Shown: in pieces, positions 1 through 58,329 of the stretch
Layout: every line of letters starts with the position of its first letter
Numbering within the stretch: the first letter of the stretch is position 1
IMG/VR virus record: IMGVR_UViG_3300025030_000081
Location: 1-64,000 of that record
Length of the DNA stretch: 64,000 nt
Strand: one strand, 5' to 3'
Origin: a virus
Made by a program: the position numbers and the translations under genes
The notes under the pieces: model-generated
Database searches by the model: none
What the model was told of the DNA's origin: nothing
Seen by the model: the letters and a program-made list of their open reading frames with translations, nothing else

Positions 1-1214
1 CGCTCAAGGAGATAGCCGACCAGGTCAACAACGTGAAGGCGCGGGCAGAGCTGTCGGCCAAGGCCCGGACAGTCAAGCCGATCGACCCGGAGACTGCCAC
101 TCCGGACGAGCTCACTGAGCATATCACGGAATCCCTTGGATCTTACGATAGCGAAAGAACAATAACCAACGACGGTGTCGCCGCTGCCCTGAAGAGAAAG
201 GATATCTCTGACGAGCAGCGCACGATGCTCGTGGCGGTGACGGAAGCAAACACCGCCAGGAAGAGCATCAACGATCGGGCCGCCAGCGGCAAATCCATGG
301 ATCAGGTCAGCAACGACATCTACAGCGGGATCGCCAATTCCGACTTCAAAGGGATCGACGCCTACCGGCAGGGGATCATGTACCACCTGACCGGGGAGCG
401 CATTCCGGAAGCAACCAAGCAGCTGGACGGATTGAAGAAGTTTCGGGACGCCCACCAGGCAAAGAGCGAGCTGGCTACCGAGCTCTTCGGCATGGTCAAA
501 AAGAACCTGCCCTTCACGCCCGACCAGCAGGCACGGTACAAAGCGCAGCAGAGACTGAATCCCAACTTCCGGATCGATCGCAGTTCGGTTAACTACGTTG
601 CTAATGTCGCACAGGAGGCGCAGGCTTTGAGCGCCGAAGTGACGCTCGCCGAGAGCCTCATGGCCGTCCATAAGAGCAAGGGGCAGAGGGTAGCCCCACC
701 GGTAACGAGTTCGACCTCCACAGCCAGTCCTGCTGCGCCGGTGGCCACAGTAAAAGAGCTTCCGGAGAGTGCGCCAGTAAGCCAGGCTAAAGCCGATCTG
801 GATATCGATTACACAGAAATTTCGGATGTCGGCTTGCAGCGGTATGTCGATAAAGCTATGGCAGCCGGAGTGGCCAATCTTACTACTGAGCAGGCCGGCA
901 AGCTTGAAGCAGTCAATAAAGAGATCGAGCGCCGGAAAACCGGAAATGGCGAAAGTAAGGCTGCTAAGCCGGAGAATGCAGCAAGCGAAAAAGACGTTGA
1001 TCAGGGGGTAGATTCAGCCGATGTAATAAATGAATCGACTGCTGAAAAAATATCTGCTAGTTTGGTCAGTGACATTTCCCTGAATGAGTTGGAAGTTACC
1101 TACACAGACACTGACGGCAGTGAGATAACAAAGTCATACGCAAAGGCTGCACAGGATCTGGATACGGAAATCCAAGAAGCAGAAGCAATTCTGAAATGCT
1201 TTGGTGCTAAATAA
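1..1214 (+). CDS. 5'-truncated virion/ejection protein, probably the separately encoded N-terminal domain of the N4-like virion RNA polymerase
   Basis: The frame is open from position 3, so the gene starts outside the window. It is helical and Ala/Glu-rich. The segment GIDAYRQGIMYHL..ATKQLDGLKKFRDAHQAK recalls N4-like vRNAP N-terminal regions. Its only visible Cys is at the C-terminus (ILKCFGAK). Confidence 0.6.
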   Translation, partial: LKEIADQVNNVKARAELSAKARTVKPIDPETATPDELTEHITESLGSYDSERTITNDGVAAALKRKDISDEQRTMLVAVTEANTARKSINDRAASGKSMDQVSNDIYSGIANSDFKGIDAYRQGIMYHLTGERIPEATKQLDGLKKFRDAHQAKSELATELFGMVKKNLPFTPDQQARYKAQQRLNPNFRIDRSSVNYVANVAQEAQALSAEVTLAESLMAVHKSKGQRVAPPVTSSTSTASPAAPVATVKELPESAPVSQAKADLDIDYTEISDVGLQRYVDKAMAAGVANLTTEQAGKLEAVNKEIERRKTGNGESKAAKPENAASEKDVDQGVDSADVINESTAEKISASLVSDISLNELEVTYTDTDGSEITKSYAKAAQDLDTEIQEAEAILKCFGAK

Positions 1215-1248
1215 TCAGTAGGTCAAACTGATTACTAGGAGGGTTCGC

Positions 1249-1458
1249 GTGAAAAGACACTACTTGCTGACGCTGCTGGTTTCTGTCGACCAGTTCTTCA
1301 ATGCCCTGTTCAGGGGATCCGAGGATGAAACCATCTCCTCCCGCGTCGGTAAGCGAAGAAACGGCAACGAGCGTTTCTGGGCAAAGGTAATCGACAAGTT
1401 GTTTTTCTGGCAGAAGAACCACACGGCCAACAGCATCGAAGCCGACGAGGGGAAATAA
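1249..1458 (+). CDS. small conserved phage protein (DQFFNALFRGSEDETISSR motif), typically tail-associated
   Basis: AGGAGG RBS before GTG; recognisable xDQxxNxxxxGxxDETISSR motif; coupled to the next gene. Confidence 0.7.
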   Translation: MKRHYLLTLLVSVDQFFNALFRGSEDETISSRVGKRRNGNERFWAKVIDKLFFWQKNHTANSIEADEGK

Positions 1459-1868
1459 TGGAGAACATCTACAATATCGGGTTCGCAGAGGGCGACGGCG
1501 AAGAGACCCCGCCTATCAAGCAGGGCTCGACTTTTGTACTTTCCTTCACCGTGAGCAACATCTTCGCTGAGGGCGGGGTAGGTACCACTCTGCGGGGGCA
1601 GTACCGGACAAGCTACGGAGCTACTGAGGCAGTCGATTTCGATTGCACCGTCGAGGTCGTTGCAGCGGTCGCGGAAACCGCGGACACTCCGGCAGTGGAG
1701 AGTTACCTGGATTGCACAGGCACCCTTTCAGCGGACGTTACCGACGGCATGGCACCAGGGCCGGGTGTCTACGATTTCGAGCTGGAGGACGTCAGCGGCT
1801 TCGTCTACCCGGCCCTTGGCGGTAAAGCCATGGTGCGCCCCAGCGCTTCGAGAGGAGTGTCACCATGA
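1458..1868 (+). CDS. tail/baseplate adaptor-like beta protein
   Basis: IKQGSTF...GVYDFELED pattern seen in phage fibre-anchoring domains; TAATG coupling. Confidence 0.55.
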   Translation: MENIYNIGFAEGDGEETPPIKQGSTFVLSFTVSNIFAEGGVGTTLRGQYRTSYGATEAVDFDCTVEVVAAVAETADTPAVESYLDCTGTLSADVTDGMAPGPGVYDFELEDVSGFVYPALGGKAMVRPSASRGVSP

Positions 1869-3937
1869 GTGTGACAGTCGACAATACCGGCAGGGTGCGC
1901 GTCGTGGTCAGCCCGAGACCTTCAGTCGTCGTCACCGTGGGACGCGGGCTTCCCGGCCCGTCTGCATACCAAGTTGCCGTGTCCACCGGCTTCGTTGGTG
2001 ACGTGAATGCCTGGCTTGCATCATTGGGTTCCGCCGTTACGCCTGCTGAAAGTGCCGCGTCCGGAAGAGCAATCCAGTTGTGGGGACTCGATAACGGGGC
2101 GGGACTCCCTGGCGCAGTCCTGCAAGCGCGGATAGACGCCCTGATAGCGGACGGAGTGCCGGAATACGCGATCATCTGGTACAGCATCGGGACACAGGCA
2201 GCCACACTTGAAGGCGTTGGTACCCTTACGGGCGTTGCTGCCGTTTCATCCGTGGGTACGATAGGCGGGGCAGGCATAGCCATAGGCGCGGGTGCTATGG
2301 TTGGTGTCTCGGCAGTTACCTCTGTAGCGGCAATAAGCGGTGTGGGGGTAGCTGCGGGAGATTCAACCCCTGACACCTTTACCCTAACCGACCAGGCCGG
2401 CGTCGCTTCCTCGACCCTGATCGAGTCAAACACCATCACGGTGGCCGGTATAGACGTGGCGACCGCGATCTCCGTTTCCGGCGGTGAGTACAGTAAGAAC
2501 GGAGGAGCTTACACCTCCGGTGCCGGAACAGTAGTTAACGGCGACACGGTTAAGGTGCGGCAGACCTCCAGCGCGGCCGGTGGGACAGAGACCAACTGTA
2601 CCCTGACGATCGGTGGGGTGAGTGATACCTTCAGCGTGACCACGAACATCGATACCACCCCCGCAGTCTTTACCTTCGTGGACCAGACCGGTGTTGCGCT
2701 CAGTTCGGTCATAACCTCCGCCGGCATAGCCATATCAGATATCAATTCCCCTGCGGCAATATCAATTGCCGGCGGTGAGTACAGCGTGAACGGAGGAGTC
2801 TACACCTCGGTACCCGGCACCGTAAGCAACGGCGACACGGTAACGGTACGGCTTACGAGTTCGTCAAGCAACAGCACTGCCGCAAGTGCAACCCTCACGA
2901 TCGGGGGAGTAAGCGACACCTTCACCGCCACGACCGCGGCGGCGGGAGACACTACCCCCGACGCTTACTCCTTCATGGACCAGACGGACGTACCCCTATC
3001 CACGGTAGTAGAATCCAATACCATAACGGTATCGGGGATCGACGCACCCGCGAACCTGTCCGTCTCGGCGGGTGGTGAGTACAGCAAGAACGGGGGAGCT
3101 TGGGCGAGTGCTAACACTACAGTAGTCAACGGTGATACGATCAAGGTACGACGTACTTCCAGTGCAACCGCCGGAACTACCGCCAATGTCGTAGTCCTGA
3201 TTGGCGGGGTGGGTGACACCTTCAGCGTTACCACACTCGCCGCCCCCACCGCGCCCGTCATCACCGTCACCGCAGGAGACACCACAAATGTCATCGCCCT
3301 CACATCTGGCGGCACCGGTGCGACCTCCTACAACCTCAAATGGGATACCGTCAGTCACTCTGTTGATAAGGCATACAGCAACACGATAACCGGCGTCACC
3401 CTCCCGTACACGCATACGGGGAGGACCAACGGGACCGCGTACTATTACAGCCTCGTGGCTATCAACGGGGCGGGTTCGGTGGAATCGGATGAGGTGAGTG
3501 GTACACCTTCAGCCGGGGCGTACTACACGCAGGGATGGGAAGGCGCTGCAAATGGAGCAACGTCTTATGATGGGTGGACTAGTGGCGTGTCTGGCGTCGC
3601 CGCTGCACATGTCAGCAATCTCTTCTCCTCGGTGGGTTCTAAGTCGTTTGCCCTTTCTGTGGGCGATGGAGAGTCAGAGGGGACTGCTTGGGTGGAACGC
3701 ACCATGTCGATACGTGCGGGTATTCTGACATTCTCGCATAAAATCGATACGGGGTCGCCTGAACCCGCATACCTTAAAATATACCTAGATGATGTACAGG
3801 TCGGGCCAGTTGGCGGGTATTTCGGAGATGGTTTTGGCATCACCCTCAACATTCCATCGGCTAGTAAAATTCGTTTCAGTGTCACCAGCCTCGGCGGGGC
3901 GATACACATTGACGCGCTTTCCATACCGATACCGTAG
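1865..3937 (+). CDS. tail fibre/adhesin with three tandem ~98-aa Ig-like repeats and an FN3-like domain
   Basis: Three repeats of DxTPDxFTFxDQxGV...GGEYSxNGG...NGDTVKVR...TIGGVSDTFSVTT, then an FN3-like motif (GATSYNLKW...NGTAYYYSLVAINGAG). Confidence 0.8.
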   Translation: MSVTVDNTGRVRVVVSPRPSVVVTVGRGLPGPSAYQVAVSTGFVGDVNAWLASLGSAVTPAESAASGRAIQLWGLDNGAGLPGAVLQARIDALIADGVPEYAIIWYSIGTQAATLEGVGTLTGVAAVSSVGTIGGAGIAIGAGAMVGVSAVTSVAAISGVGVAAGDSTPDTFTLTDQAGVASSTLIESNTITVAGIDVATAISVSGGEYSKNGGAYTSGAGTVVNGDTVKVRQTSSAAGGTETNCTLTIGGVSDTFSVTTNIDTTPAVFTFVDQTGVALSSVITSAGIAISDINSPAAISIAGGEYSVNGGVYTSVPGTVSNGDTVTVRLTSSSSNSTAASATLTIGGVSDTFTATTAAAGDTTPDAYSFMDQTDVPLSTVVESNTITVSGIDAPANLSVSAGGEYSKNGGAWASANTTVVNGDTIKVRRTSSATAGTTANVVVLIGGVGDTFSVTTLAAPTAPVITVTAGDTTNVIALTSGGTGATSYNLKWDTVSHSVDKAYSNTITGVTLPYTHTGRTNGTAYYYSLVAINGAGSVESDEVSGTPSAGAYYTQGWEGAANGATSYDGWTSGVSGVAAAHVSNLFSSVGSKSFALSVGDGESEGTAWVERTMSIRAGILTFSHKIDTGSPEPAYLKIYLDDVQVGPVGGYFGDGFGITLNIPSASKIRFSVTSLGGAIHIDALSIPIP

Positions 3938-3946
3938 GAAGATGCC

Positions 3947-5449
3947 ATGACCATACTTCAAAATGCACTAGACTACCTGCATACGCTTTACAAGGCGACT
4001 GACGACCCCCCGTATGATTTTCAGGCGGTCCATACAACCGTAATTGATTTTACCTTGGAACACGGTCTAGCCCAGTGGCCACAGGCAGGCACAGGATATC
4101 GCTACTGGTTAGGGATAACTACCGTCGAACCAGAAAACCCATTTGTATTCGTCAGTAATGACGGGATAACGTGGGCACCGGCTCCAGGAACTACCCATCA
4201 GATGGATGATACTGGTGCAGACTGGAATATGTACGATGGATACGGCCCTGACTTTGATTTTTCAGAGGATATTGAGCTTGTCTACGACCCCTTAGCCGAT
4301 TGCATCCATGCATATTGGATGCACACGACATTACTTAGTAATCCGATACAGGGCGATGGGATCAGACATCGAACTATAAACAACAATCTGACGGTTTCAG
4401 CTAAAACAGCCATAGGCATTCCATGGGTAAACCATGAAATGTCCTCAAACTCCCCGACCGTGATACGCGAAGCTTCCGACAAGTGGCATATGTGGGGGAT
4501 CTATCAAGATGTTTCTTTGGACAGTGCCTCTAACCCGTTGCTTAGAAAACTGACCTACCGATTTGGTACTAGCCCTACGTCATGGGGAGAATATCAGCTA
4601 TGTGATATGGCCGTTGATCCAATGATTGCCTATCCCAATGATACGCCAAATCATATAACGGCAGAGCTTAACCCAACTATCCCAGGTCAGGTTGATCTTG
4701 TTATCCAAACCCTCCGCTGGCCACTAGAGGTTAATTATCTGAGCAAGGCGGCGCTGGTCCATGCCGTGACCCATCTATCAACGCCCACTGCTATCACTAC
4801 ACCGCTTGCTCCAACTCGGCTATTGGAGTACGCCCCGCTGAGTTGGGAGAAGCTGGGGCTCTACAGGTCGGGTTTTACCTTGCAGCTTGTTGGCACAGAG
4901 ATGATTATGAGGCTCTGGTACACAGGCGTAGAGGATTACATGCACCCCCGCATCGGCCTCACCTCCGGTGCGATATACGAAGTGGTTGACGGGGCAATAG
5001 TGCCGCCGCCTGATACCAGTGCACCGACAGTGACCGCGTTCACCCTCCCCACTACGTCTACAACTTTAGAGGTAGCATTAATAGCACTCACTGCAAGCGA
5101 GTCGGACTGTACCTTCATTCTGTCAGAGTCTGGAATTAAACCACAGGCCGGAGATGTGCGGTGGGGGGTAGCACCGACTAGTTATACGTTTAATTCCTCA
5201 GGCAGCAAAACCCTCTACGCATGGGCCAAGGACGCAGCGGGGAACGTGAGCGCGGGGGTGGGCGATACGGTGATGATTACGCTGGATACCGCCGGGGCTG
5301 GCTTACTTACCGGCGTCTCCACCGTAACGAGTGTAGGCAGCATTACCGGCATCGGCGTGGCAGCAATGGTGGGTCGCCAGATCAGAGCACCTAATGGGAC
5401 CATACGTATTTTGCGGAGAATCGACGGGACACTTATAACCAACCACTAA
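3947..5449 (+). CDS. putative receptor-binding/depolymerase protein (beta-propeller glycosidase-like N-terminus, Ig-like C-terminus)
   Basis: ENPFVFVSNDGITW Asp-box-like motif; C-terminal LYAWAKDAAGNVS Ig-like motif; lower GC in the N-terminal part. Confidence 0.55.
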   Translation: MTILQNALDYLHTLYKATDDPPYDFQAVHTTVIDFTLEHGLAQWPQAGTGYRYWLGITTVEPENPFVFVSNDGITWAPAPGTTHQMDDTGADWNMYDGYGPDFDFSEDIELVYDPLADCIHAYWMHTTLLSNPIQGDGIRHRTINNNLTVSAKTAIGIPWVNHEMSSNSPTVIREASDKWHMWGIYQDVSLDSASNPLLRKLTYRFGTSPTSWGEYQLCDMAVDPMIAYPNDTPNHITAELNPTIPGQVDLVIQTLRWPLEVNYLSKAALVHAVTHLSTPTAITTPLAPTRLLEYAPLSWEKLGLYRSGFTLQLVGTEMIMRLWYTGVEDYMHPRIGLTSGAIYEVVDGAIVPPPDTSAPTVTAFTLPTTSTTLEVALIALTASESDCTFILSESGIKPQAGDVRWGVAPTSYTFNSSGSKTLYAWAKDAAGNVSAGVGDTVMITLDTAGAGLLTGVSTVTSVGSITGIGVAAMVGRQIRAPNGTIRILRRIDGTLITNH

Positions 5450-5463
5450 AAAGGAGTACGAGC

Positions 5464-5928
5464 ATGCCTTACGCAGCCGGATTTACCAGATACAAGATTA
5501 AGAAATGGATGGACGCCCTCGCCGCGGAAATCAACGCCGGGGGCATCAAACTGGCCATCCACTCCGGAAGCCCCGCAGCCCTGGACCGCAATGCGGATCC
5601 GGCAGTTCCGCTCACCTACGCAGGCACCATCGCCAGTGAACTCACCAGCGCCGGTACCGGTTACACGACCGGCGGATATGTGCTGGACGAAGCGGTAGTC
5701 GAAGCCTCGGGCAACGCCTACCAGATCAAGTTCAGCAACGTCGCGGGGGGAGCGGGCCAGGTCACCACCGGGGCTGGCACCATTGCAATCGGCACCTACA
5801 CGGCGGCGATCTACGACACGCTGGACAGCAACAGGATCATCGCCATCTGCACCGTCTCGGTCACGGTCGCTTCCTCGGGTGGTGCGATGGTATTCACCAT
5901 TCCCGCCGACGCGCTGAAACTGGCGTAA
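5464..5928 (+). CDS. phage structural (tail-associated) protein
   Basis: AAGGAG RBS; IKLAIH...ELTSAGTGYTTGG motif common in small phage structural proteins. Confidence 0.6.
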   Translation: MPYAAGFTRYKIKKWMDALAAEINAGGIKLAIHSGSPAALDRNADPAVPLTYAGTIASELTSAGTGYTTGGYVLDEAVVEASGNAYQIKFSNVAGGAGQVTTGAGTIAIGTYTAAIYDTLDSNRIIAICTVSVTVASSGGAMVFTIPADALKLA

Positions 5929-5979
5929 CTCCAACAGCCCCGGTGCTCACACAGGCCGGGGCGCTATCAGGAGAACTAT

Positions 5980-6477
5980 GTGAAGAAGCCGGCCGGAGTA
6001 ATCATACACCACTCGCTCACCAGGGACGGCAAAACCGTCGATTGGGATGGCATCAAAAAGTACCATACCTCGTACCGACACAACGGCGAGATGATCACCA
6101 AGGACCGGTTCATGACCTTACAGGCTGCCGGCGCCAAGGGTCTGGAATCACCCTGGTCCGATATCGGCTACCATGCTGGCGTCGAGCGGATCAACGGCGT
6201 GCTGACCACACTGACCGGCCGGCCGCTGAACATGACCGGCGCCCACTGCAGCGGGAAGAACGATCACCTTGGAATCTGTATTGTCGGCAACTACGATCTT
6301 GTGGTTCCAGACGATGAACTACTGACCTATTCCGCGGAAGTAGCGGCCGGGTATCTGCGGCTGCTTAATCTGGGCGTCGATACCATGCACCGGCACCACG
6401 AGTACCACCCGAAGTCCTGCCCGGGCAAGCTCTTTCCCTGGGAGCGGTTCAGGACTCTCGTGAGGGATGTGCTGTGA
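5980..6477 (+). CDS. endolysin, N-acetylmuramoyl-L-alanine amidase (Amidase_2 type)
   Basis: IIHHS, WSDIGYH, GAHC, LGICIVGNYD and HHE..KSCPG motifs with zinc ligands. Confidence 0.92.
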   Translation: MKKPAGVIIHHSLTRDGKTVDWDGIKKYHTSYRHNGEMITKDRFMTLQAAGAKGLESPWSDIGYHAGVERINGVLTTLTGRPLNMTGAHCSGKNDHLGICIVGNYDLVVPDDELLTYSAEVAAGYLRLLNLGVDTMHRHHEYHPKSCPGKLFPWERFRTLVRDVL

Positions 6478-6665
6478 GGACGAGATGGAGGCGCCTCGCG
6501 GAGACCTTCGTGGCGAAAAAGTATGTTGCGTGGGTCGTCGCCTCGGTCTTTCTCTGGTTCGCTAAGATATCGGGAACTGACTGGGTCCTCCTGACCTTCG
6601 CCATTTTCACCCTCGACCTGGCGACAAAGATGAAAGTCGCCCCACCGAAAGGAATAGACGAATGA
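6474..6665 (+). CDS. putative holin
   Basis: 63 aa, two hydrophobic segments, charged ends, overlaps the endolysin stop. Confidence 0.6.
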   Translation: MRTRWRRLAETFVAKKYVAWVVASVFLWFAKISGTDWVLLTFAIFTLDLATKMKVAPPKGIDE

Positions 6666-7240
6666 CCCTCTACGATTTGGAGTATAAGATCAAAGGAGTC
6701 CCGAAATGGAAGGTGATCGGAATTGCGGCACTCGTACTATTTGCGGCGTCCTACCTTGTCTGGTCGTTTGTACATACGCCCAGCCCGAAGGCCGGTGCCG
6801 TTATCCTTCCGGCCCCTGCCATCACGGTGCCGAAGGTCGAAGGGCCAACCTTGAAAGTACCGCTCAAGGTCGTGCCTCCCAAGGCCGTCGAAAAGAAGTT
6901 CCCGACGATTGGTACTACGCCTCCCGATAAGCCGGTAATCGACACCGCCAAGATTCCGCAGACGGAGAATGGCGGCTCGACGGTGACCTCTCTGGACCTG
7001 GTAACCGGGGAAGCATCCACTGTCTTCGTTCCGGATCCTGCACCATGGTTCGCCTTCGAGGACAAGAACGCGGTAGGCATCGCATACCTCTGGACCTCGC
7101 AGGGTACGACAGGGGCCGCATACTATCGTCGGGACCTGTTCAGGGTCAAGGATATTCACGTCACCGGCATAGCGGGGATCATGGCGGTTGACGGCAGGGT
7201 GGGTGTGGGAGCCGGAGTAACTGGCGAATTGCGGTTTTAA
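6662..7240 (+). CDS. putative spanin-like membrane protein
   Basis: N-terminal TM helix, Pro-rich linker, amphipathic beta strands ending in Phe; lies in the lysis cassette. Confidence 0.5.
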   Translation: MTLYDLEYKIKGVPKWKVIGIAALVLFAASYLVWSFVHTPSPKAGAVILPAPAITVPKVEGPTLKVPLKVVPPKAVEKKFPTIGTTPPDKPVIDTAKIPQTENGGSTVTSLDLVTGEASTVFVPDPAPWFAFEDKNAVGIAYLWTSQGTTGAAYYRRDLFRVKDIHVTGIAGIMAVDGRVGVGAGVTGELRF

Positions 7241-7400
7241 AGAATCAGCTACGGAGGCGACATGATCGACTAATGAATTCTTGATTAACTAAGAAAAAGC
7301 TGATAATACTCTGTTTGAAGAGTTTTCATGACTAGCTGAGTATTGACCAGAATACCGAAACCTTGACTGACTGCTATATATATTCGATACAGGAGTGTTT

Positions 7401-7907
7401 ATGCCGCTTAGGTTTCACTGGTTAGAGACAGCAGTCATAGCATTAATCATGACGTTGAGTATCACTACCGGCTTTAGTGCAACAGCTCCAGTTGGCAACT
7501 GGACAAATCATGTAGATATCCCTTCGTTGTACGCCATAGCCGGTTACCTTGCTAAGATCATCGTAGCGACAATAACTGCCATGGGCGGGATCATCTGGCT
7601 TTTGGTCAAACAAATATGGAAACAAGACCGACAAGCTCAAACCGCGCAAATCGAAAAACTTCTCCTCAGCCAAGAAACCCTGATTAAAAATCAAACTATA
7701 CAAAGAAACAGCCTTATTCAAATGCACCAGGATACCTCGAAGAAGTTCGATCGGGTGATCGGTGCCATGGGTGAGTGCAAGACTTGTACTGCTGCGATCA
7801 AAGCCTACGATCACAAGCAGGAACAGCGACTGATACTGGATAGTGAGGATGACCATTGGACTGTTGACAACATGCCAGAGATGGTGGCCGGGGGAGAGAA
7901 CAGATGA
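7401..7907 (+). CDS. membrane protein with coiled coil (holin/antiholin-like)
   Basis: Signal/TM segments followed by a Gln-rich coiled coil; AGGAG RBS upstream. Confidence 0.5.
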   Translation: MPLRFHWLETAVIALIMTLSITTGFSATAPVGNWTNHVDIPSLYAIAGYLAKIIVATITAMGGIIWLLVKQIWKQDRQAQTAQIEKLLLSQETLIKNQTIQRNSLIQMHQDTSKKFDRVIGAMGECKTCTAAIKAYDHKQEQRLILDSEDDHWTVDNMPEMVAGGENR

Positions 7908-8164
7908 CACCCAAAGGGATTATTGTTCACCACAGTTTAACCCAGGACGGGATCGGCTACTGCGTAAATAAGGACCGCTACATCGACATCCGTATTGCTG
8001 GCGATTCTGCCGAGAGCATGGAGAGACTGGTAGACCTCACCATTAACCTGATCGTCATGTACGGGATAGCCGTTGACGACATCCACCCTGCGTCTAAGGG
8101 ATGTCTTGATACCTGCTTCCCCTGGGATGAGTATATCGACCGCGTAAAGGAGGTCATGTCATAG
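7904..8164 (+). CDS. miniature, internally deleted amidase paralogue
   Basis: MTPKGIIVHHSLTQDG and CFPWDEYIDRVKEVM mirror the ends of the 5980..6477 amidase (PAGVIIHHSLTRDG; LFPWERFRTLVRDVL). Confidence 0.65.
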   Translation: MTPKGIIVHHSLTQDGIGYCVNKDRYIDIRIAGDSAESMERLVDLTINLIVMYGIAVDDIHPASKGCLDTCFPWDEYIDRVKEVMS

Positions 8165-8331
8165 ACTGCCGAGCGTGGAGAAACGACAAGTGCAAGCTGG
8201 AAGCCTGTTCAAAATGGGACAGCTGCACATTGATGAATGACGCCGCCGTCACACCGGAGACGGCCCCTGCCACCAACAAGAAGCAGTCCTCATGATTATG
8301 TAGCTATAAACTGACAAATATTGTAATAGAG

Positions 8332-8358
8332 TGGGGACGCCAATGTCCCCATTTTTTT
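8332..8358 (+). terminator. intrinsic terminator just before the vRNAP core gene
   Basis: TGGGGAC-GCCAAT-GTCCCCA followed by T7. Confidence 0.75.
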
Positions 8359-8379
8359 GTAATCCCACCGAGGTAACCT

Positions 8380-11300
8380 ATGACAAAACTCGCTGATTGC
8401 ATCACAGCCCACGGTGTAAAAACCCACACGAGACTGCCGGCAGATGTCAAGGCTGCGGTGGCTGCAGGAGATACAGCTTTAGCTGTATCGACAATGCAGG
8501 CACACGTAGCCGCCTTGAAAGCCCTCAAGCAAACGATAGAGATCCGGCACGAAGAAAACAAAAAGGATTTCATGGCGCAGACCGTTAGCAAGACGTCCGC
8601 CGCCTCCTACGTTAACCGTGGTGCTGCAGATCCAACCAACGAGCTGAATCATTTCCAGGTGAAGAGCTTCTCCAAGATCTGGAAGAATCTGGTCCAGCGC
8701 GCGGGCAGTTTCGGTGCCGCAGTAGGTCTGTTGAGAGCTAAACCGGATCAGGTGACTCCCGGCGAGCAGGCTGTGCTGGAACACTTCATGACTGGTCCGG
8801 AGAGTTTCGGCAGGCAGATGAGCGCTACGATCAACGCGATCTTCAAGGCCAAAGGGATGCACGACGGACCGAAGGCGGCCAGCAGTTTTCCTTTCCGCTA
8901 CGAGGACATGATCCAGTACCTGCCGGTCAGGTACCCGGCGGAGTTCGGGGAGAAGTCCAATCCGAAGGTGGACGAGCAGCATGCCAGGGATAACGGAATC
9001 CTGGATGGCCCGACCAGGAGCGCCATAGCCGCCACAGCGTACGAGTGGATCGCCACGAGTGGCAGGAAGAGCATGGCTCAGACCGAGTCCTCTCTGGGGC
9101 GTTTGCTGGGCCTGCAGAAGGATGAACCACTCCCGGGTAATTCCTGGGAGCTCCTGGAGCACGCCGGCATGAACGCCGAGACCGTGGCCAGGCAGCTTGG
9201 GAAAACGATCCTACAGCGTCTCAGTATCGCACCGGGACCGAAGTCGGACTCACTGGCGCAAAGCAGGATGGAGGAGTCCCTTGGCTTCATGGCTCTGGCG
9301 GCGATGGAATCGATGGGAGTCATCGAGCGGCAGTACGTTATCGCCGATCATACGGAGAAAGCCAGAGCAGCCCTCATAGCAGCCGGTAAACCGGTCCCTG
9401 CGATCGGACTGAACGCCCTGAAAGAGGACCAGCAGCTGGAACCCGGTGAGCTCTTCTACACGGACAATGGCAGTCCTGAGGGGCCACAGGGGCTACTGAT
9501 GATGCGCCTGGTCAAGGTTGCCGACCTCGACCTGCTGACCGACATCGAGGAGCACTTCAAAGAAGGCCGGGCCGCCTTCGACAAGGTGTTCGCCAACGAG
9601 CCTCAGGATTTCGGCATGCAGTGGAAGGCCCAGGTGAGGAAGGCATTCAAGATCGGCAGCTCCAACGTCGAGGCCAACGCCGAGCAGACCCGGAACATCA
9701 ACAAGTACAGCTCCATCCCTTACCAGCGCAACCCGGAAGCGATCGGCTTCCTGAAGTCCATGTGGGGACTGGTTGAAGGGATGGAAAAGGGAGAAGGGCA
9801 GGACCGACTGAAAGCGGTATTCTACGAGGCACTGGGTGCGCCACCGGCCGAGAATCTGCTGAAGCTGCACAAGAAAGGGAACGAGGGAATCCGGCGGGGG
9901 ATCGAGCAGGACTTCAGGGACGTACTGAACTACGAGGATGAGCACGCGAAGCGGGCAGCCAACGGGGAGAGCACGGAGTTCTACCTGTCGTCGGATTTCA
10001 TGTCCAACATGCGCATGATCATGCGCGGTGACATCAACCCACAGAACTCCAAGATGCACCGGAGCCTGTTCGCCCCTACTGGATTCCAGACGACGTTCAA
10101 AAAGGATCCCAAAGGGAAGCTGGACCAGGCTTTCTTGGAAGCGGTGGCAGTGGCGTTCGACATCGAGACCGGCAAGGGGTTGATCGGCGATGCAGCGGCC
10201 CAGGTGGCCGGACTGATGGACATCATAACCAACCCGGGTAATGACAAGCATGAGGCAGTCACCGCGGCGATCAAGGCCATACAGGCTTACCAGACCACCG
10301 GAGAAATGACGAGCCAGGCCATGGAAGTAATCGCTGTCGGCTCTGCAAAGGTGGACAACAAGGTCACCGGTCTGAAGGGACTCTTCGAGTACGCCCGCTA
10401 CGCAGCTACTCCGGTAGGCGCCGAGTTCAGCACCGACATGCACGCCGAGATTGACGGGGTCAGCAACGGGGTCATCATCGGCATCCTGCAGCTGATTCCG
10501 GACAGCGCGAACAAGCGAGCTGTACTGGCTACCCTGGCCATGGGTGGCATCAGCACCAGCACAGTCAGGGCCGACCTGAACAAGCTCCTGATCCAGAACA
10601 ATCTCAACGACGCCTACCAGCGCATGGCCCAGGAATGGGCAAAAGAGATCCTGACCTTGAAGAAGAAATGGGACACCTCCGAGAAGAGCAAAGACAACGC
10701 GCTCTTTGAGAAGGCCGAGGCTCTGGGGAGGATTCTCGGGGAATTCCAGGACCCGCAGGGTGTCATCAACAAAACCATTCGCAACCTCTCCAAACCAAGA
10801 ACCATGCAGATCATCTACGGCGCCGGCATACGCAAACAGGTCCAGCTGCTGACGGGCGAGAATGTCCTGCATGACGGGATCTACAAGAAGGTCGAGAAGA
10901 TCATGGCCAGGGTCCACAAAGCCAACGCAGCAAACCCGGACCCGCTGGTAAAAGAAGACTTCGCTGCGCTGATGAGAGCCGTCCGGACGCTCACCGGCAA
11001 TTCTTCCTACCATGCGGACAGGTACTTCACCGGTGACCAAGAAACGACCATCGCCAACCTGCAGACGTTCCACTTGAAACCGGAACATATCAAGACCCTC
11101 AACCAGGCCGTCGCGGATACCTACGGGTTGGCCATGTCCAACGCGATTCAGACAGTCTACGGCACACTGATCGAGGCGCGCAAACCGTTGACCGCCGCGG
11201 TGCAGCTGGCAGTCACGACGTACAACACCATCCTCAAAAAGAAGGTCGACCTGCTGGTCGAGGCACACAAAGCCGACGCCACGTTCAAAGGGGATCCGGA

Positions 11301-14300
11301 GGTCATCACCAAGGAGGAGCTGGATAAGATCCTGGCTTCCATCGAGCACCTGATCCCCAAGATCAAGACGCCGCTGTACACCAAGGACAGCCCCAGCTAC
11401 CTGCCGATGGCCGAGGTGGGTAACAACCGGAGCTACACCAAGCAGGCCCGGGTCGTGCAGCAGTACCTGCAAAAGGGGCTGGTGCAGCATCAGGGTTACG
11501 CCGAGGGGATACCGTACCTGGAAGATCCCGGGATGTCACCCGTGGTCAAAGGGATCCAGATGCTGGATTCCATGATCGCCAACGGCTTGATGGGCCTGGA
11601 TACCCACATGCTCAACAACCACGACGGCTTCTCACACGGCATCGGGGACAGCGAGGTGATCGCCCAGGAGGCCAACAAGATATTCGCCGGGGCAATGACG
11701 GATTACAGTTTGGCCCAAGCCTTTGAAGAGATGCATCTCGAGCTGGCTGAAAAAGGCAAAGCCATGCTGGATGCACTGGGCGTCCAGCCTAAGGATTACC
11801 TGTGGGGAACCAGTAGGAACACCGATAAGCCCTCCGCCTTCACGGGTGGTCTGGTCGGTGACCAGGTGGTGTCCTTTGACCTGCTGGTGAGCATGGGACT
11901 GGCAAGCAAAGAGGATCGGGCCGCGTACGTCAAAGATGCACAAGAGCGCGGAGTGCCCTACCGGACCGCGGCACAGGAGTACGTCAATGACGTGATTGCG
12001 CGCCAGGGTATGCCAGATGCCAACTTCACCGAAAAGGTGTTGGCGCAGCTGACCAAGAACCTGGCAGAGATCGCCGAGCAGACCACACGCAACAAGAAAG
12101 AGGTGATGGACTCGGTACGCCAGTGGCACCAGTACCCGCACCACGGTACCGGGTACTTTGTGGATAACCCTGTAAATACCGGAGATAAGATCTTTGGAGA
12201 CATCGACACGAACACGGTGCTCTCCCATGATGCAAAGGCACGGGACAAGGACATAGCGCTTATCCAGGGATTCCAGGCGGAAGGTTACCACTCCTCACCC
12301 ACCGGTAACGTGTCGACCACCGAAGCCGACTACACCCAGCCCTCGCAGGTGATCGACAGCCAGAACGTCGTAGAGAGTTTCGATGCGCTTATCAGTATGG
12401 ATAGCAAGCTGGCGTACGCCAGTGTCCAGAACTCGCCAAGCCATGTCGATTACCTGCGGGGCGTCCTGAACTCGATCGTGTCCCGGGTAATGGGTCCGGT
12501 CGAGATGTTCATGGATCAGCACAAGATCAACAACGAGACGCAGGGGATGTACACGATCGGCGCCAACGGAACTCAGCGGATCTGGATCCAGACGCAGCAG
12601 AAGTCGGATCACCCGCTGGCGGGCATGCTGGGCCAGAGTATCCGGATGTCTCCGGCCGAGGTTTACGTGCACGAGCTGGTGCACCATATCACCCACACCG
12701 GCCTGAAGAACTTCCCACACCTGCAGAGGCAGGCATCAGCCCTTCGTGAGCTGTCCTTTCAGGAGTTCTCCAAAGCATACGGGGAGCATGCCTACCGGGT
12801 GTTCCTGAACGACCCGACGATCGACGTTGCCGACCCGGCCAACGCCTACGAGGTTGCCGCGGCGAAAGCCCGCTGGGAGTACGTGTTTAACACGAAACGC
12901 AAAGCCGACGGCAGCAATGCCGGCCTGGACGAGTTCATCTCCTTCGGGATGACCAACGAAAACTTCAAGCGCGAGCTGGGCAAGCTGCAGGTGAGCCAGG
13001 AGATCCTCAGCGCGCGCAAGTCGCTGAACACGATCTTCGAGAAGAACATCCAGCAGACGCTGGTCAACCTGTTCACCGCGGTCCTGGAGTTCATCTACCA
13101 GCGCTTCAACCAGCAGAGGCACTCGACCCGGGTCGACCAGGAACTGGAGAACCTGGTACGCGCCATCTCCTACGTGGACAGCAAGAACAAGAGCGTCCTG
13201 TGGAAGTTCACTGCTGATATGGAGGAGGCCATTACCGCGGTAAGTTTGCAGATTGACGAAAAGATTGTCGGCATGGTCAAAGCTGCCGTCGACAAGACCA
13301 AGGTGGGCAGCGCAATCAACCAGTTGAAGCAGTTTCCCCAGCTGAACAACATGCTCTCCCACCAGATGCGGATCGTGCTGCACTGGTACACCAGCCAGCA
13401 GCAGGGGCTGATCCCGAGCATCGTCACGGAGATGCAGGGGACGACCGATCGGATGCGCCCGTTCCACGACCAGCTCAGGATGCGCAACCATGTACTCGAT
13501 GCCGCCAAGAACGAAGCAACCCTGGTCGTCCGGGACAAGGTTAACTCCTGGTTCAAACAGGCGCTGACTCCGGCCCAGAAGACGGTGATAACCAAGGCGC
13601 TACTGAAGACCGATGTCGGTTCCTTACTGGATAAAGGCTTGTCGTCCCAGGCGATCACCGGTTACCTTGCCGAGGACACCCGGCGGGAAGCGCGGATCAC
13701 CGAGATCCTGAACCAGCTCCGAAACGATTCGGTACTGAAGGATTATGCGGTCTACTTCGAGAATGCCGCTGATGACCTCGGCTACTTCATGGTGCACAGC
13801 GCGCGTAAAACCAAAGACAGCATGCCGCTCATGAATGCCCACAATATCGTCAGCATGAGGCAGAGCAAGCATGCCGGGAAGCTCGCCGGTGAGAACTATG
13901 GCAGAGCCCTTGACCTGGTCGATCAGCTGGCTACCCTCTCCTCGCTGCGCTACGTACCCAAAGCGCAGAGACTGGCTGCGGCAGCTCTCATGACCAGTGA
14001 GTGGCCGGCCATCGAGAACGTCCTGAACCAGCACAACAAGCTCAAGGACGATGCCTTTCGGGATCTCTTCCACGGCAATCCCGTGAAGATGACCAAAGGC
14101 TACGTCGAGCAGATCCTCAACAGCAGGGTCAAGTTCGAGCAGGCCCATGTCGCCAATCCGGATGACCCGAATGACCCGACCCGGAAGCGGTTCGAGGATG
14201 CCGGCTACTACATGCAGGCGACCCCGATTCCCCGGGATCCGGCAGATCCGGTCCAGGACGACATCTACATGTTCCGCAACATGCTTGGGGCGGTGAACGA

Positions 14301-16032
14301 CCTGCAGCCCGGGATTGCATCGTACTCGCAGAATATCGGACGAGGCGCCACAGGCTACGACATACAGCAACAGTTGGGAAACACCTATGATCCTGCCCAA
14401 GAAGCCGAGCGGAACAACCAGATCGTTCTGGCGGATACCTTGAACACGATCGACAACCTGTTCAAGGTCCGTCCTCCTGCTAAACAGGCGTTAGGATCCG
14501 GCAAGAACTACATGATCCCCAAGTTTAATGACAAGGGCAACATTGCCGAGATGCGCTACATGATGTCCGAGGCAACCAAGGATATAGTGTTTGAGCAGTT
14601 CTCCGAGTTCGATGCGGTGCTGGGGAGAATGGCCGCCACAATTATCGACAAGACGGTGACACCGGAGATCAACGCCAATGTGATCGAAGCGCTGAAGGAT
14701 GTTGCCGACCATAAGGATTATGGCCGTAAAGCGCTGCCGGAAGTCTTCGTGGAGATCTCACCCTGGTCGCCGGAGAAACGCTACCGGGACATCTATCATC
14801 AGCTGCCTCCCAATGCCCGGACCAAGATCCTGTCCATCTGGGGTGAGAACCGAATGTGGGTGGCGCAGGACATGGTGGATCTGGCTTTCGGCCAGAGGAA
14901 GTACTCGGTCAGCGAGACCTTCAGCAAGAACAAGAAGGAAAGCAACCTGTTTGAGAAGATGTTCGTAGAGGTGCTGAAACTGGCTCTGGGAGATCACAAT
15001 CCCTTGAGCGAACCGCCACCAGGAGCCAAGGCGAATGACTCCGTACAGGGCCGTGCAGTGCGCCGTACGACGGCAGTCTACAACACGCTTGCCCAAGTGA
15101 CGAAGCTAGGGAAAGCCAACATCGTGGTGCGTAACCTGGGGGTCGTGTTCGGCAACCACAATAGCAACATGATGCTGCTCAAGTCGATGGGCATCCCCCT
15201 AGAGAAGATCGTCCTTTACAACAAGGAGGCGATGACCGGGATCCTGCAGTACCAGAAGGACAAGCACGAGCTCGAGTCCTGGCGCCTTGAGTTGGAGAAT
15301 ACCCAACGGAGACGGTCCATCACCCCGGCCGAGAAAGACATCCAGACAAGAAACATCAGCCGGCGGATCGCCGTGCTGGAAAACCAGCTGGCCCTGAATA
15401 AGGCAACGCCTCTGGTTAAGGAAGGTGCGATGCCGTCCATCGTCGACGATTTCGATACGGATTACGTACCGCCGCCGTTCACTTACGGGGTGGATGCGCT
15501 CCTGGACAAGAGTCTCGATCTGCTGCCGAAAGGGCTACAGAGGGCCGGTCGGACGCTGTTCATGACCACCGACACCGAGGGGTTCCGGATGATGAACAAC
15601 GCGGTCAAGCTGACTGACTTCACCGGGCGGTACATCCTCTACAAGCACCTGACTGCCAAGGGTATGGATCACAACCTGGCTGTCTCAACAGTCATGGATA
15701 AGTTCATCAACTTTGACTTGCCAACTCATCGAATGATAAGTATGGTGAACGACATTGGACTAGTGATGTTTTCCAAGTACCAGCTGAGGGTGCTCAAACA
15801 TATCAAGGATGTCTTGAAAGAGCACCCGTTCACGGCGCTGGCCACTTTTCTGATTGGTTCACACATAGGTGACAACAACATCATCAATTCGATACCGTTC
15901 GTAACCAAAGATGTCATGCAGAATGTCGGCAATGCTGCATCGCTGACCGGCACAGTCTGGGATACCGCGGTGATTGACGGCGTGCAGTATGTTGGCGGCC
16001 TGGCCGCTGATGTGGTTACTCCAGGAACGTGA
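8380..16032 (+). CDS. virion-encapsidated RNA polymerase (N4 gp50-like), polymerase core plus C-terminal domain
   Basis: NPQNSKMHR; motif A EIDGVSNG; motif B RNLSKPRTMQIIYGAG; motif C NHDG; HELVH zincin-like motif in the C-terminal domain; only one Cys in 2550 aa; GAGG RBS. Confidence 0.93.
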   Translation: MTKLADCITAHGVKTHTRLPADVKAAVAAGDTALAVSTMQAHVAALKALKQTIEIRHEENKKDFMAQTVSKTSAASYVNRGAADPTNELNHFQVKSFSKIWKNLVQRAGSFGAAVGLLRAKPDQVTPGEQAVLEHFMTGPESFGRQMSATINAIFKAKGMHDGPKAASSFPFRYEDMIQYLPVRYPAEFGEKSNPKVDEQHARDNGILDGPTRSAIAATAYEWIATSGRKSMAQTESSLGRLLGLQKDEPLPGNSWELLEHAGMNAETVARQLGKTILQRLSIAPGPKSDSLAQSRMEESLGFMALAAMESMGVIERQYVIADHTEKARAALIAAGKPVPAIGLNALKEDQQLEPGELFYTDNGSPEGPQGLLMMRLVKVADLDLLTDIEEHFKEGRAAFDKVFANEPQDFGMQWKAQVRKAFKIGSSNVEANAEQTRNINKYSSIPYQRNPEAIGFLKSMWGLVEGMEKGEGQDRLKAVFYEALGAPPAENLLKLHKKGNEGIRRGIEQDFRDVLNYEDEHAKRAANGESTEFYLSSDFMSNMRMIMRGDINPQNSKMHRSLFAPTGFQTTFKKDPKGKLDQAFLEAVAVAFDIETGKGLIGDAAAQVAGLMDIITNPGNDKHEAVTAAIKAIQAYQTTGEMTSQAMEVIAVGSAKVDNKVTGLKGLFEYARYAATPVGAEFSTDMHAEIDGVSNGVIIGILQLIPDSANKRAVLATLAMGGISTSTVRADLNKLLIQNNLNDAYQRMAQEWAKEILTLKKKWDTSEKSKDNALFEKAEALGRILGEFQDPQGVINKTIRNLSKPRTMQIIYGAGIRKQVQLLTGENVLHDGIYKKVEKIMARVHKANAANPDPLVKEDFAALMRAVRTLTGNSSYHADRYFTGDQETTIANLQTFHLKPEHIKTLNQAVADTYGLAMSNAIQTVYGTLIEARKPLTAAVQLAVTTYNTILKKKVDLLVEAHKADATFKGDPEVITKEELDKILASIEHLIPKIKTPLYTKDSPSYLPMAEVGNNRSYTKQARVVQQYLQKGLVQHQGYAEGIPYLEDPGMSPVVKGIQMLDSMIANGLMGLDTHMLNNHDGFSHGIGDSEVIAQEANKIFAGAMTDYSLAQAFEEMHLELAEKGKAMLDALGVQPKDYLWGTSRNTDKPSAFTGGLVGDQVVSFDLLVSMGLASKEDRAAYVKDAQERGVPYRTAAQEYVNDVIARQGMPDANFTEKVLAQLTKNLAEIAEQTTRNKKEVMDSVRQWHQYPHHGTGYFVDNPVNTGDKIFGDIDTNTVLSHDAKARDKDIALIQGFQAEGYHSSPTGNVSTTEADYTQPSQVIDSQNVVESFDALISMDSKLAYASVQNSPSHVDYLRGVLNSIVSRVMGPVEMFMDQHKINNETQGMYTIGANGTQRIWIQTQQKSDHPLAGMLGQSIRMSPAEVYVHELVHHITHTGLKNFPHLQRQASALRELSFQEFSKAYGEHAYRVFLNDPTIDVADPANAYEVAAAKARWEYVFNTKRKADGSNAGLDEFISFGMTNENFKRELGKLQVSQEILSARKSLNTIFEKNIQQTLVNLFTAVLEFIYQRFNQQRHSTRVDQELENLVRAISYVDSKNKSVLWKFTADMEEAITAVSLQIDEKIVGMVKAAVDKTKVGSAINQLKQFPQLNNMLSHQMRIVLHWYTSQQQGLIPSIVTEMQGTTDRMRPFHDQLRMRNHVLDAAKNEATLVVRDKVNSWFKQALTPAQKTVITKALLKTDVGSLLDKGLSSQAITGYLAEDTRREARITEILNQLRNDSVLKDYAVYFENAADDLGYFMVHSARKTKDSMPLMNAHNIVSMRQSKHAGKLAGENYGRALDLVDQLATLSSLRYVPKAQRLAAAALMTSEWPAIENVLNQHNKLKDDAFRDLFHGNPVKMTKGYVEQILNSRVKFEQAHVANPDDPNDPTRKRFEDAGYYMQATPIPRDPADPVQDDIYMFRNMLGAVNDLQPGIASYSQNIGRGATGYDIQQQLGNTYDPAQEAERNNQIVLADTLNTIDNLFKVRPPAKQALGSGKNYMIPKFNDKGNIAEMRYMMSEATKDIVFEQFSEFDAVLGRMAATIIDKTVTPEINANVIEALKDVADHKDYGRKALPEVFVEISPWSPEKRYRDIYHQLPPNARTKILSIWGENRMWVAQDMVDLAFGQRKYSVSETFSKNKKESNLFEKMFVEVLKLALGDHNPLSEPPPGAKANDSVQGRAVRRTTAVYNTLAQVTKLGKANIVVRNLGVVFGNHNSNMMLLKSMGIPLEKIVLYNKEAMTGILQYQKDKHELESWRLELENTQRRRSITPAEKDIQTRNISRRIAVLENQLALNKATPLVKEGAMPSIVDDFDTDYVPPPFTYGVDALLDKSLDLLPKGLQRAGRTLFMTTDTEGFRMMNNAVKLTDFTGRYILYKHLTAKGMDHNLAVSTVMDKFINFDLPTHRMISMVNDIGLVMFSKYQLRVLKHIKDVLKEHPFTALATFLIGSHIGDNNIINSIPFVTKDVMQNVGNAASLTGTVWDTAVIDGVQYVGGLAADVVTPGT

Positions 16033-16039
16033 GGTTTAC

Positions 16040-57627: not shown

Positions 57628-58329
57628 ATGAAAGCAGCGCATAACACGCCGATCACGATCGAGGAGTTCAAGGAAGCCCTGCCGGCGCACATACGCAAGA
57701 CGGTCAACCAGGACGTGCTCGACACCATCAACGCGGGCATGTCGGATCCCGAAGTGCTGGCCGTCTACCGTGAGAACGTGATAGGCCTGACGACCGTGCT
57801 GCAGGAAGGGCGCTTCAAGATGAGCGACTACCTGAGCGCGGTGAAGTTCGTCAGCCACAAGCTCTTGGGGGACAACAACATCGTCGCCTGGTCCAAGACC
57901 TTCCCCGACCGGTACAACGCCATGCGTCAGAGGGGCAATTCCTCCAGCGAGATAGCTTCCGTCTGTTCCCGTTACGGCACCAGCAAGCTGGTGATACTGT
58001 TACTGGGTCAGACGATGATGCCGACGCACATCCTCAATGCCCCACTGTACCAGAAGGCGATCAATGTGCAGGCCGATCTGATGATGAACGCCAAGAGCGA
58101 GAAGGTAAGATCCGACGCCGCGGCAAATCTTTTGTTGACATTGAAACCGCCTGAGGTTAAGAAGGTGGAGTTGTCGATCGGACTGCAGGAAGATTCAGCC
58201 ATTACTCAACTACGAGAGTCCACGATGGCACTAGTCAACCAGCAGCGTCAAATGATCGAACAGGGGGCATTGTCAGTGCGATCTATTGCCGAGAGTAAAC
58301 TGATTACCATCGATGTGACGGATGCCTAA
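57628..58329 (+). CDS. N4 gp69-like protein, putative small terminase
   Basis: YLSAVKFVSHKLLG, TFPDRY, QKAINVQADLM..AKSEKVRSDAA; directly upstream of the large terminase. Confidence 0.8.
   Translation: MKAAHNTPITIEEFKEALPAHIRKTVNQDVLDTINAGMSDPEVLAVYRENVIGLTTVLQEGRFKMSDYLSAVKFVSHKLLGDNNIVAWSKTFPDRYNAMRQRGNSSSEIASVCSRYGTSKLVILLLGQTMMPTHILNAPLYQKAINVQADLMMNAKSEKVRSDAAANLLLTLKPPEVKKVELSIGLQEDSAITQLRESTMALVNQQRQMIEQGALSVRSIAESKLITIDVTDA

Follow-up and report, generated by a model that had tools for sequence, protein, structure and literature searches.

Phage N4 carries a virion RNA polymerase (vRNAP) in which an N-terminal domain (NTD; residues 1-906) is joined to the RNA polymerase (RNAP) domain (1007-2101) by a low-complexity linker of about 100 residues (PMC13434306). 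The N4 NTD, with membrane-spanning helices reported at residues 224-278, has been proposed to enter the cell first and insert in the membrane, and the packing of an enzyme of 3500 residues, its passage through a tail channel of ~35 Å and its refolding are still to be explained in N4-like phages (PMC13434306). In cyanophage A4, cryo-electron microscopy has placed the C-terminal helix of gp27 docked in gp26, with a disulfide between Cys1715 and Cys5, reported as a feature of that one phage (PMC12002296). In the A-4L genome, gp27 (1717 aa) and gp26 (1114 aa) each have just one Cys, the bonded one. We analysed the viral record IMGVR_UViG_3300025030_000081, of which the stretch studied here (the window, 64,000 nucleotides) is the first 64 kb of one contig of 75,882 bp. 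Its N4-like vRNAP is encoded by two separate genes, one for the NTD and one for the RNAP core and C-terminal domain (CTD), and each product carries a single Cys at the end that faces the other. A disulfide between these residues probably ties the halves end to end for packaging and injection.

The product of the downstream gene (P0002, 2550 aa) matched phrog_2206 (E 2.5e-290) and, in Pfam, N4_RNAP_helical (PF21894); precomputed annotation likewise gave PF21894 together with PF21867, and both a T7-like single-subunit RNAP core and a large CTD were recognisable by family profiles. It shares 23-26% identity with vRNAPs of Schitoviridae. In blastp, which gave RNAP and CTD matches, residues 481-997 aligned to 1346-1872 of N4 gp50, and residues 143-2521 aligned to 1130-3527 of a one-piece vRNAP of 3550 aa (P0047); some 900-1000 N-terminal residues are therefore missing from P0002. 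The product of the upstream gene (P0003, 984 aa) was searched by full HMMER against 1.8 billion representatives, and its relatives were of two kinds: about 45 stand-alone proteins of 760-1900 aa, and the N-terminal ~80-850 residues of proteins of 3100-3800 aa. The fused P0047 was matched with a library-wide E of 6e-26, and blastp aligned residues 172-829 of P0003 with 168-815 of P0047. Residues 170-258 aligned with 207-288 of N4 gp50, overlapping the membrane-spanning helices reported for N4. Other searches gave no such match: GenBank phages, searched by megablast and tblastn with the vRNAP gene and with the two halves of the NTD protein, yielded neither a close relative nor an NTD match, single-sequence scans of IMG/VR gave no matches, a sequence search of the PDB with P0003 returned noise, and Foldseek with its AlphaFold2 model found nothing in the PDB at E <= 0.001 beyond generic all-alpha matches. 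That model (mean predicted local distance difference test score, pLDDT, 76) has an all-alpha body (1-806), a disordered linker, a short helical pair (856-894) and further disorder, and ends in a beta-hairpin (945-959) and a helix (960-982).

In the record, the upstream gene is cut. The last 135 bases of the contig (75748-75882; L001:11748-11882) repeat the first 135 (window 1-135) with one mismatch, a G at window position 9 that is C in the other copy (E to Q), which looks like the overlap of a circular assembly with a genome of about 75.7 kb. The overlap falls within the NTD gene; read across the contig ends, the open reading frame (ORF) starts at genome position 74007 (L001:10007). On its 5' side lie genes for gp57-like, major capsid, gp55-like, gp54-like and gp53-like proteins, then ORFs of 162 and 608 aa. 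This is the order of N4 gp57-gp56-gp55-gp54-gp53-gp52-gp51-gp50, with the NTD gene where gp50 would start. The rest of the window holds an N4-type primase, exonuclease, DNA polymerase, RNAP2 subunit, terminase and portal. Since homology, colinearity and synteny agree, these comparisons argue that the vRNAP is genuinely split, its NTD being encoded separately; in place of a single chain of ~3500 aa running from NTD through RNAP to CTD, the NTD is a product in its own right, and the break falls in the region equivalent to the flexible NTD-RNAP linker of N4. The preliminary description of this DNA had proposed a separately encoded NTD with just the 3' part of the upstream gene in view, and the recovered gene, which matches the N-terminal part of gp50, upholds the proposal. 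The features that make up the split enzyme are as follows.

1-1214, plus strand: 3' part of the gene for the stand-alone vRNAP NTD protein (end overlap, wrapped ORF, homology to fused vRNAPs).
1092-1211, plus strand: putative C-terminal docking module, P0003 residues 945-984 (alignment of relatives, predicted secondary structure, predicted interface 935-982).
8380-16032, plus strand: vRNAP gene for RNAP core and CTD, P0002, 2550 aa, lacking the NTD (profile and sequence matches).
8380-8583, plus strand: putative N-terminal docking module of the vRNAP, residues 1-68, with a short leader, Cys7 and a helix (invariant Cys; predicted interface 4-68).

P0002 has one Cys, at residue 7 (TGC, 8398-8400), and P0003 has one, at residue 980, fifth from its end (codon 1197-1199), which is also the only Cys in the 403 aa visible in the window; recounted over the full length of both genes, the numbers and codons in the preliminary description were correct. 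The start of P0002, with a GAGG ribosome-binding site 6 nt upstream, is the same in 10 relatives. At the Cys frequency in a crude ORF set of the genome (about 1.4%), ~37 residues would be predicted for P0002 and ~14 for P0003, and the departure of the counts of one and one from these values was confirmed to be far beyond chance. N4 gp50 has no Cys in its 3500 aa, as the preliminary description states, and neither gp51 nor gp52 has any. Both the need of ejection proteins to unfold for passage through a narrow channel and the oxidising surroundings of the virion could account for the near-absence of Cys in the family.

The single terminal Cys was kept among relatives. Protein search yielded seven short vRNAPs (2520-2577 aa, 41-50% identity across the first 500 residues), each with exactly one Cys, at residue 7-10; in three more, read from IMG/VR contigs, the one Cys is residue 5 or 10. 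The N-terminal lone Cys is thus found in 10/10 short vRNAPs at residue 5-10, invariant at 40-57% identity. In 43 stand-alone NTD proteins a Cys lies 2-11 residues from the end, mostly as the single Cys, with a few proteins ending in CC. It follows a conserved module of a beta-hairpin and a helix (consensus VTYTDxDG...Y.EA....I.EA..IL.C), and C980 is one of 8 invariant columns in an alignment of 38 sequences with a mean identity of 23%. Both genes could be found on one contig in five genomes (the window, L003, L004, L006 and L010), and the association of a split vRNAP with paired terminal Cys put forward for this locus holds in all five, with the terminal Cys themselves conserved in the 43 and 10 relatives. 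As a negative control we used 36 one-piece vRNAPs (3125-4296 aa), 26 of which are without any Cys and none of which has a Cys within 15 residues of either end. Profile hidden Markov models (HMMs) of both docking modules found no match in 17 fused vRNAPs, and there is therefore no vestigial module in the fused forms. The stand-alone NTD P0055, in which the Cys is the third residue from the C-terminus, and the NTD of the fused P0047, which is without such a Cys, share 48% identity, so split and fused states differ even among fairly close relatives. In a FastTree phylogeny of the shared region (rooted at the midpoint only), all ten split enzymes fall in a single clade, with fused enzymes around it. 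These comparisons support the view that the facing terminal Cys accompany every split gene and are missing from every fused one.

Several other candidates for the role of these residues were considered. Lipidation of the lipoprotein or CaaX type was rejected, as there is no signal peptide and the spacing of the Cys from the end varies from 2 to 11. A CxC at 1098-1100 of the fused P0072 was rejected as a clasp, since it sits in an inserted cytosine-methyltransferase-like motif. P0072 is a metagenomic protein of 3667 aa with a vRNAP-type NTD, and the CPC lies in a stretch (~1090-1105) resembling motif IV of cytosine-5 DNA methyltransferases; from this resemblance, a giant ejected protein may carry a methyltransferase domain. 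Two halves with Cys near their junction also superficially recall a split intein, and the halves could be rejoined by trans-splicing or another ligation using the terminal Cys. A split intein has an N-intein of ~100 aa that starts with Cys or Ser and a C-intein of ~35 aa that ends in HN before a Cys, Ser or Thr. Here, the modules are just ~40 and ~68 aa, the upstream Cys ends its module and does not start an N-intein, no HN-Cys junction is present at the vRNAP N-terminus, and Pfam found no intein or Hint domain in either protein; we consider ligation scarcely credible.

Docking of the facing ends was addressed by complex prediction from alignments of NTD-family residues 900-984 (38 rows) and short-vRNAP residues 1-150 (7 rows). 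The pair scored 0.74, and the best of three controls 0.01; the mark for this score is reached by 58 of 80 solved complexes and by 2 of 110 mismatched pairs, a rough guide here as our own alignments were used. Runs agreed in at least 63% of contacts, with a partner pLDDT of at least 65. In the predicted complex the helix at 960-978 of P0003 packs on the vRNAP helix at 32-68, the interface takes in P0003 residues 935-982 and vRNAP residues 4-68, and the contact of Cys980 with Cys7, at an expected error of 0.8 Å, is among those predicted with the lowest error. The model supports binding of the NTD C-terminus to the vRNAP N-terminus, without proving it, and is in keeping with the earlier suggestion that the facing ends dock through helices. 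The same suggestion placed both Cys in amphipathic helices, which stands for Cys980, in the last turn of its predicted helix, but not for Cys7, which the model contacts put in an extended segment ahead of the helix.

An alternative explanation for these data is that the tails dock non-covalently only, with the Cys acting as residues that pack a small heterodimeric module or bridge a metal ion. The extensive helix-helix interface of the model might suffice without a bond, and assembly takes place in the reducing cytoplasm. A residue kept for packing would, however, be expected to appear as Ala, Ser or Val in some of the 43 and 10 sequences (20-50% identity), whereas the Cys is invariant, and purged elsewhere; nearby His residues, of the CITxHG motif, are not conserved (L003, L010), so there is no complete metal site, and a zinc site was rejected on this ground. 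The equivalent pair in A4 is, moreover, a disulfide (PMC12002296), and we regard docking without a bond as unlikely. Another possibility is that each Cys bonds a different partner, in NTD-NTD or RNAP-RNAP homodimers or with another virion protein. N4 packs several vRNAP copies, so that like chains would lie close together, and sequence alone cannot assign bonding partners. The two Cys nevertheless always co-occur, and only where the gene is split, the gp51-like neighbour has no Cys, and the model sets Cys980 on Cys7; this makes other partners quite improbable.

The two genes are not adjacent, which corrects the preliminary description: ten ORFs, 7.2 kb, lie between them. The features of this interval are as follows.

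1249-8164, plus strand: insert of ten ORFs between the two vRNAP genes (ORF list), of 69, 136, 690 (tail-fibre-like), 500, 154, 165 (Amidase_2 endolysin), 63, 192, 170 and 86 aa.
8328-8355, plus strand: terminator-like GC hairpin with a T-run, 25 nt before the vRNAP start (consensus scan only).

In the relatives, inserts of ~1.7-6.6 kb occupy the same place and differ; they are mutually unrelated, the insert of the window being the one of 7.2 kb. It could be argued from this layout that the proteins are independent: the NTD protein would be an ordinary third ejection protein, the RNAP would be packaged alone and the Cys pattern would be incidental. Many podophages, T7 among them, have a stand-alone large ejection protein, and here the genes are 7 kb apart with the terminator-like hairpin just 5' of the vRNAP gene. 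Independence leaves the invariant single terminal Cys, their co-occurrence and the predicted docking unexplained, and we find it very hard to accept. No rival explains why the Cys is invariant, unique in each protein, always paired and present only at breaks.

The DNA of both docking modules (window 1092-1214 and 8380-8589) is AT-richer than the genes to which they belong (GC 0.42-0.52 vs 0.58). GC content is 0.424 in the last 165 nt of the NTD gene (0.58 in the remainder) and 0.519 in the opening 210 nt of the vRNAP gene (vs 0.576), and the AT-richer 3' end noticed earlier for the upstream gene was found again (0.469 over the last 450 nt vs 0.58). The shift would be consistent either with modules rich in Lys, Glu and Ile or with modules acquired from another source. 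On the 3' side of the vRNAP gene is a tail-fibre-like gene (window 15974-18751) with a weak collagen-repeat match. By comparison with L003, it most likely starts at the ATG at 16040 and not at the TTG at 15974, which overlaps the vRNAP gene, and a Cys at residue 4 of this ORF was accordingly rejected as an artefact of the TTG start.

We propose that the giant vRNAP is made as two chains, a membrane-inserting NTD protein of 984 aa and an RNAP-CTD protein of 2550 aa, whose docking modules would pair non-covalently during assembly. A Cys980-Cys7 intermolecular disulfide would form once the virion is outside the cell and would rebuild a topologically linear chain able to pass the tail as a thread, in the manner of the one-piece enzyme; elsewhere both proteins would be kept free of Cys so that no other crosslink forms. 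The NTD would enter first and insert in the membrane, and the RNAP-CTD chain would follow, tied to it. We read the pair as a clasp that restores continuity because a bond from C-terminus to N-terminus is the one crosslink that keeps the cargo linear; we infer both the formation of this S-S bond in virions and a role for the link in serial ejection. Reduction in the cytoplasm may subsequently free the polymerase from the membrane-bound NTD, a step that is plausible but speculative; on the model, the predicted non-covalent interface might hold the chains together even after reduction. Packaging and ejection of the halves as a disulfide-clasped, head-to-tail chain is the best explanation of the whole, and we think it likely, with room for doubt.

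A number of points weigh against this proposal. Virions are assembled in the cytoplasm, which is reducing, and the bond can therefore form only at a later stage. The docked complex is a predicted one, without bond geometry. The N-terminal Cys was sampled in 10 sequences from one clade; partner vRNAPs of the CC-ending NTD proteins, sought for covariation, were not found, and IMG/VR gave no match to a partner for P0055, whose split would be an independent one. The sole JGI match, L013, was rejected as that partner, being a low-complexity match to an unrelated, Cys-free ORF of 2168 aa. All relatives are metagenomic. Finally, the docking modules are without detectable similarity to the proteins of A4 or of Salmonella phage epsilon15, their HMMs giving only misplaced matches at E > 0.09; the precedent offered by those phages is therefore an analogy of design and not shown descent.

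A wider reading would combine three views. The clasp could be a general, portable device of podophages, any break in the chain of injected proteins being tolerated if the new ends gain a one-Cys docking module, which would hold the cargo together as one linear thread in the oxidised virion. It could act here as a redox fuse, thiol reduction cutting the polymerase from the membrane-embedded NTD, whereas the one-piece N4 enzyme would stay tethered. Perhaps, too, the clasp frees the linker site for the swapping of tail-fibre and lysis cassettes, making it a hot spot. Taken jointly these views are tentative, and we would not expect all of them to hold.

Some further observations were made in the structural genes of this genome. 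The N4 gp54-like protein (phrog_2050, a profile of 303 positions) is represented by two consecutive ORFs of 151 and 260 aa (L001:4104-4559 and 4563-5345; genome 68104-69345), which match profile positions 30-132 and 119-297; this is either another split structural gene or a frameshift. The large terminase ORF (window 58322-60949) is 875 aa, with terminase-profile matches in two stretches, 170-515 and 513-859; an N-terminal extension or an insert may explain why it exceeds the usual length. The major capsid ORF (L001:1502-3028), of 508 aa, matches a family profile of 356 positions from end to end, and from this the protein probably contains an insertion domain.

If the proposed clasp is correct, a natural cut at the NTD-RNAP linker, re-tied by a Cys pair, would indicate that ejection needs continuity of the chain and not a particular linker sequence. 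The clasp also offers an explanation for the avoidance of Cys in these giant proteins and gives a simple handle on the order and coupling of ejection. For annotation, 'short vRNAPs' of 2500 aa and orphan proteins of ~1000 aa can be flagged as halves of one machine. The one disulfide published for ejection proteins, that of A4, would in addition become a case of a far broader rule extending to epsilon15-type phages. Epsilon15 is a cultured model phage bearing the pattern of facing termini: its gp16 (634 aa; L014 14669-19329 for the pair) has one Cys, at residue 629, sixth from the end, and its gp17 (918 aa) has one, at residue 5. Similar facing Cys were mentioned for epsilon15-like phages in the preliminary description, and at the level of sequence this holds for epsilon15.

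Compared with N4 gp50 and other Schitoviridae vRNAPs (e.g. Pseudomonas phage DEV gp71), the enzyme described here has the same RNAP core and CTD (phrog_2206, N4_RNAP_helical), an NTD with a hydrophobic membrane-spanning stretch, the same place in the gp53-gp52-gp51-gp50 ejection operon and the same near-total avoidance of Cys. It differs in being encoded by two genes in place of one chain of ~3500 aa, with the break in the NTD-RNAP linker, in the lone-Cys docking modules borne by both new ends, which fused forms are without, and in the 7.2-kb tail-fibre and lysis cassette that separates the halves. No description of a vRNAP that is split, or that forms a disulfide, was found in the literature. 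Epsilon15 shares the lone Cys at facing termini of consecutive internal virion proteins, a likeness of sequence pattern only; its genes are adjacent and no polymerase is involved, and no structural or biochemical report of a gp16-gp17 bond was found in the literature. A likeness is also seen with A4 gp27 and gp26. There, the single Cys of the upstream protein is 3 residues from the C-terminus, at the end of a long helix, and that of the downstream protein is Cys5, so that lone Cys face each other as do Cys980 of 984 and Cys7 of 2550 here; the C-terminal helix docks on the next chain, as is predicted for P0003. The A4 genes are adjacent, however, and neither product is a polymerase, and A4 (Anabaena phage A-4L) is a T7-like member of the Saffermanviridae whereas the phage described here is N4-like. 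As a class, the split vRNAP with its proposed clasp combines two known kinds, the vRNAP of N4 and the clasp of A4.

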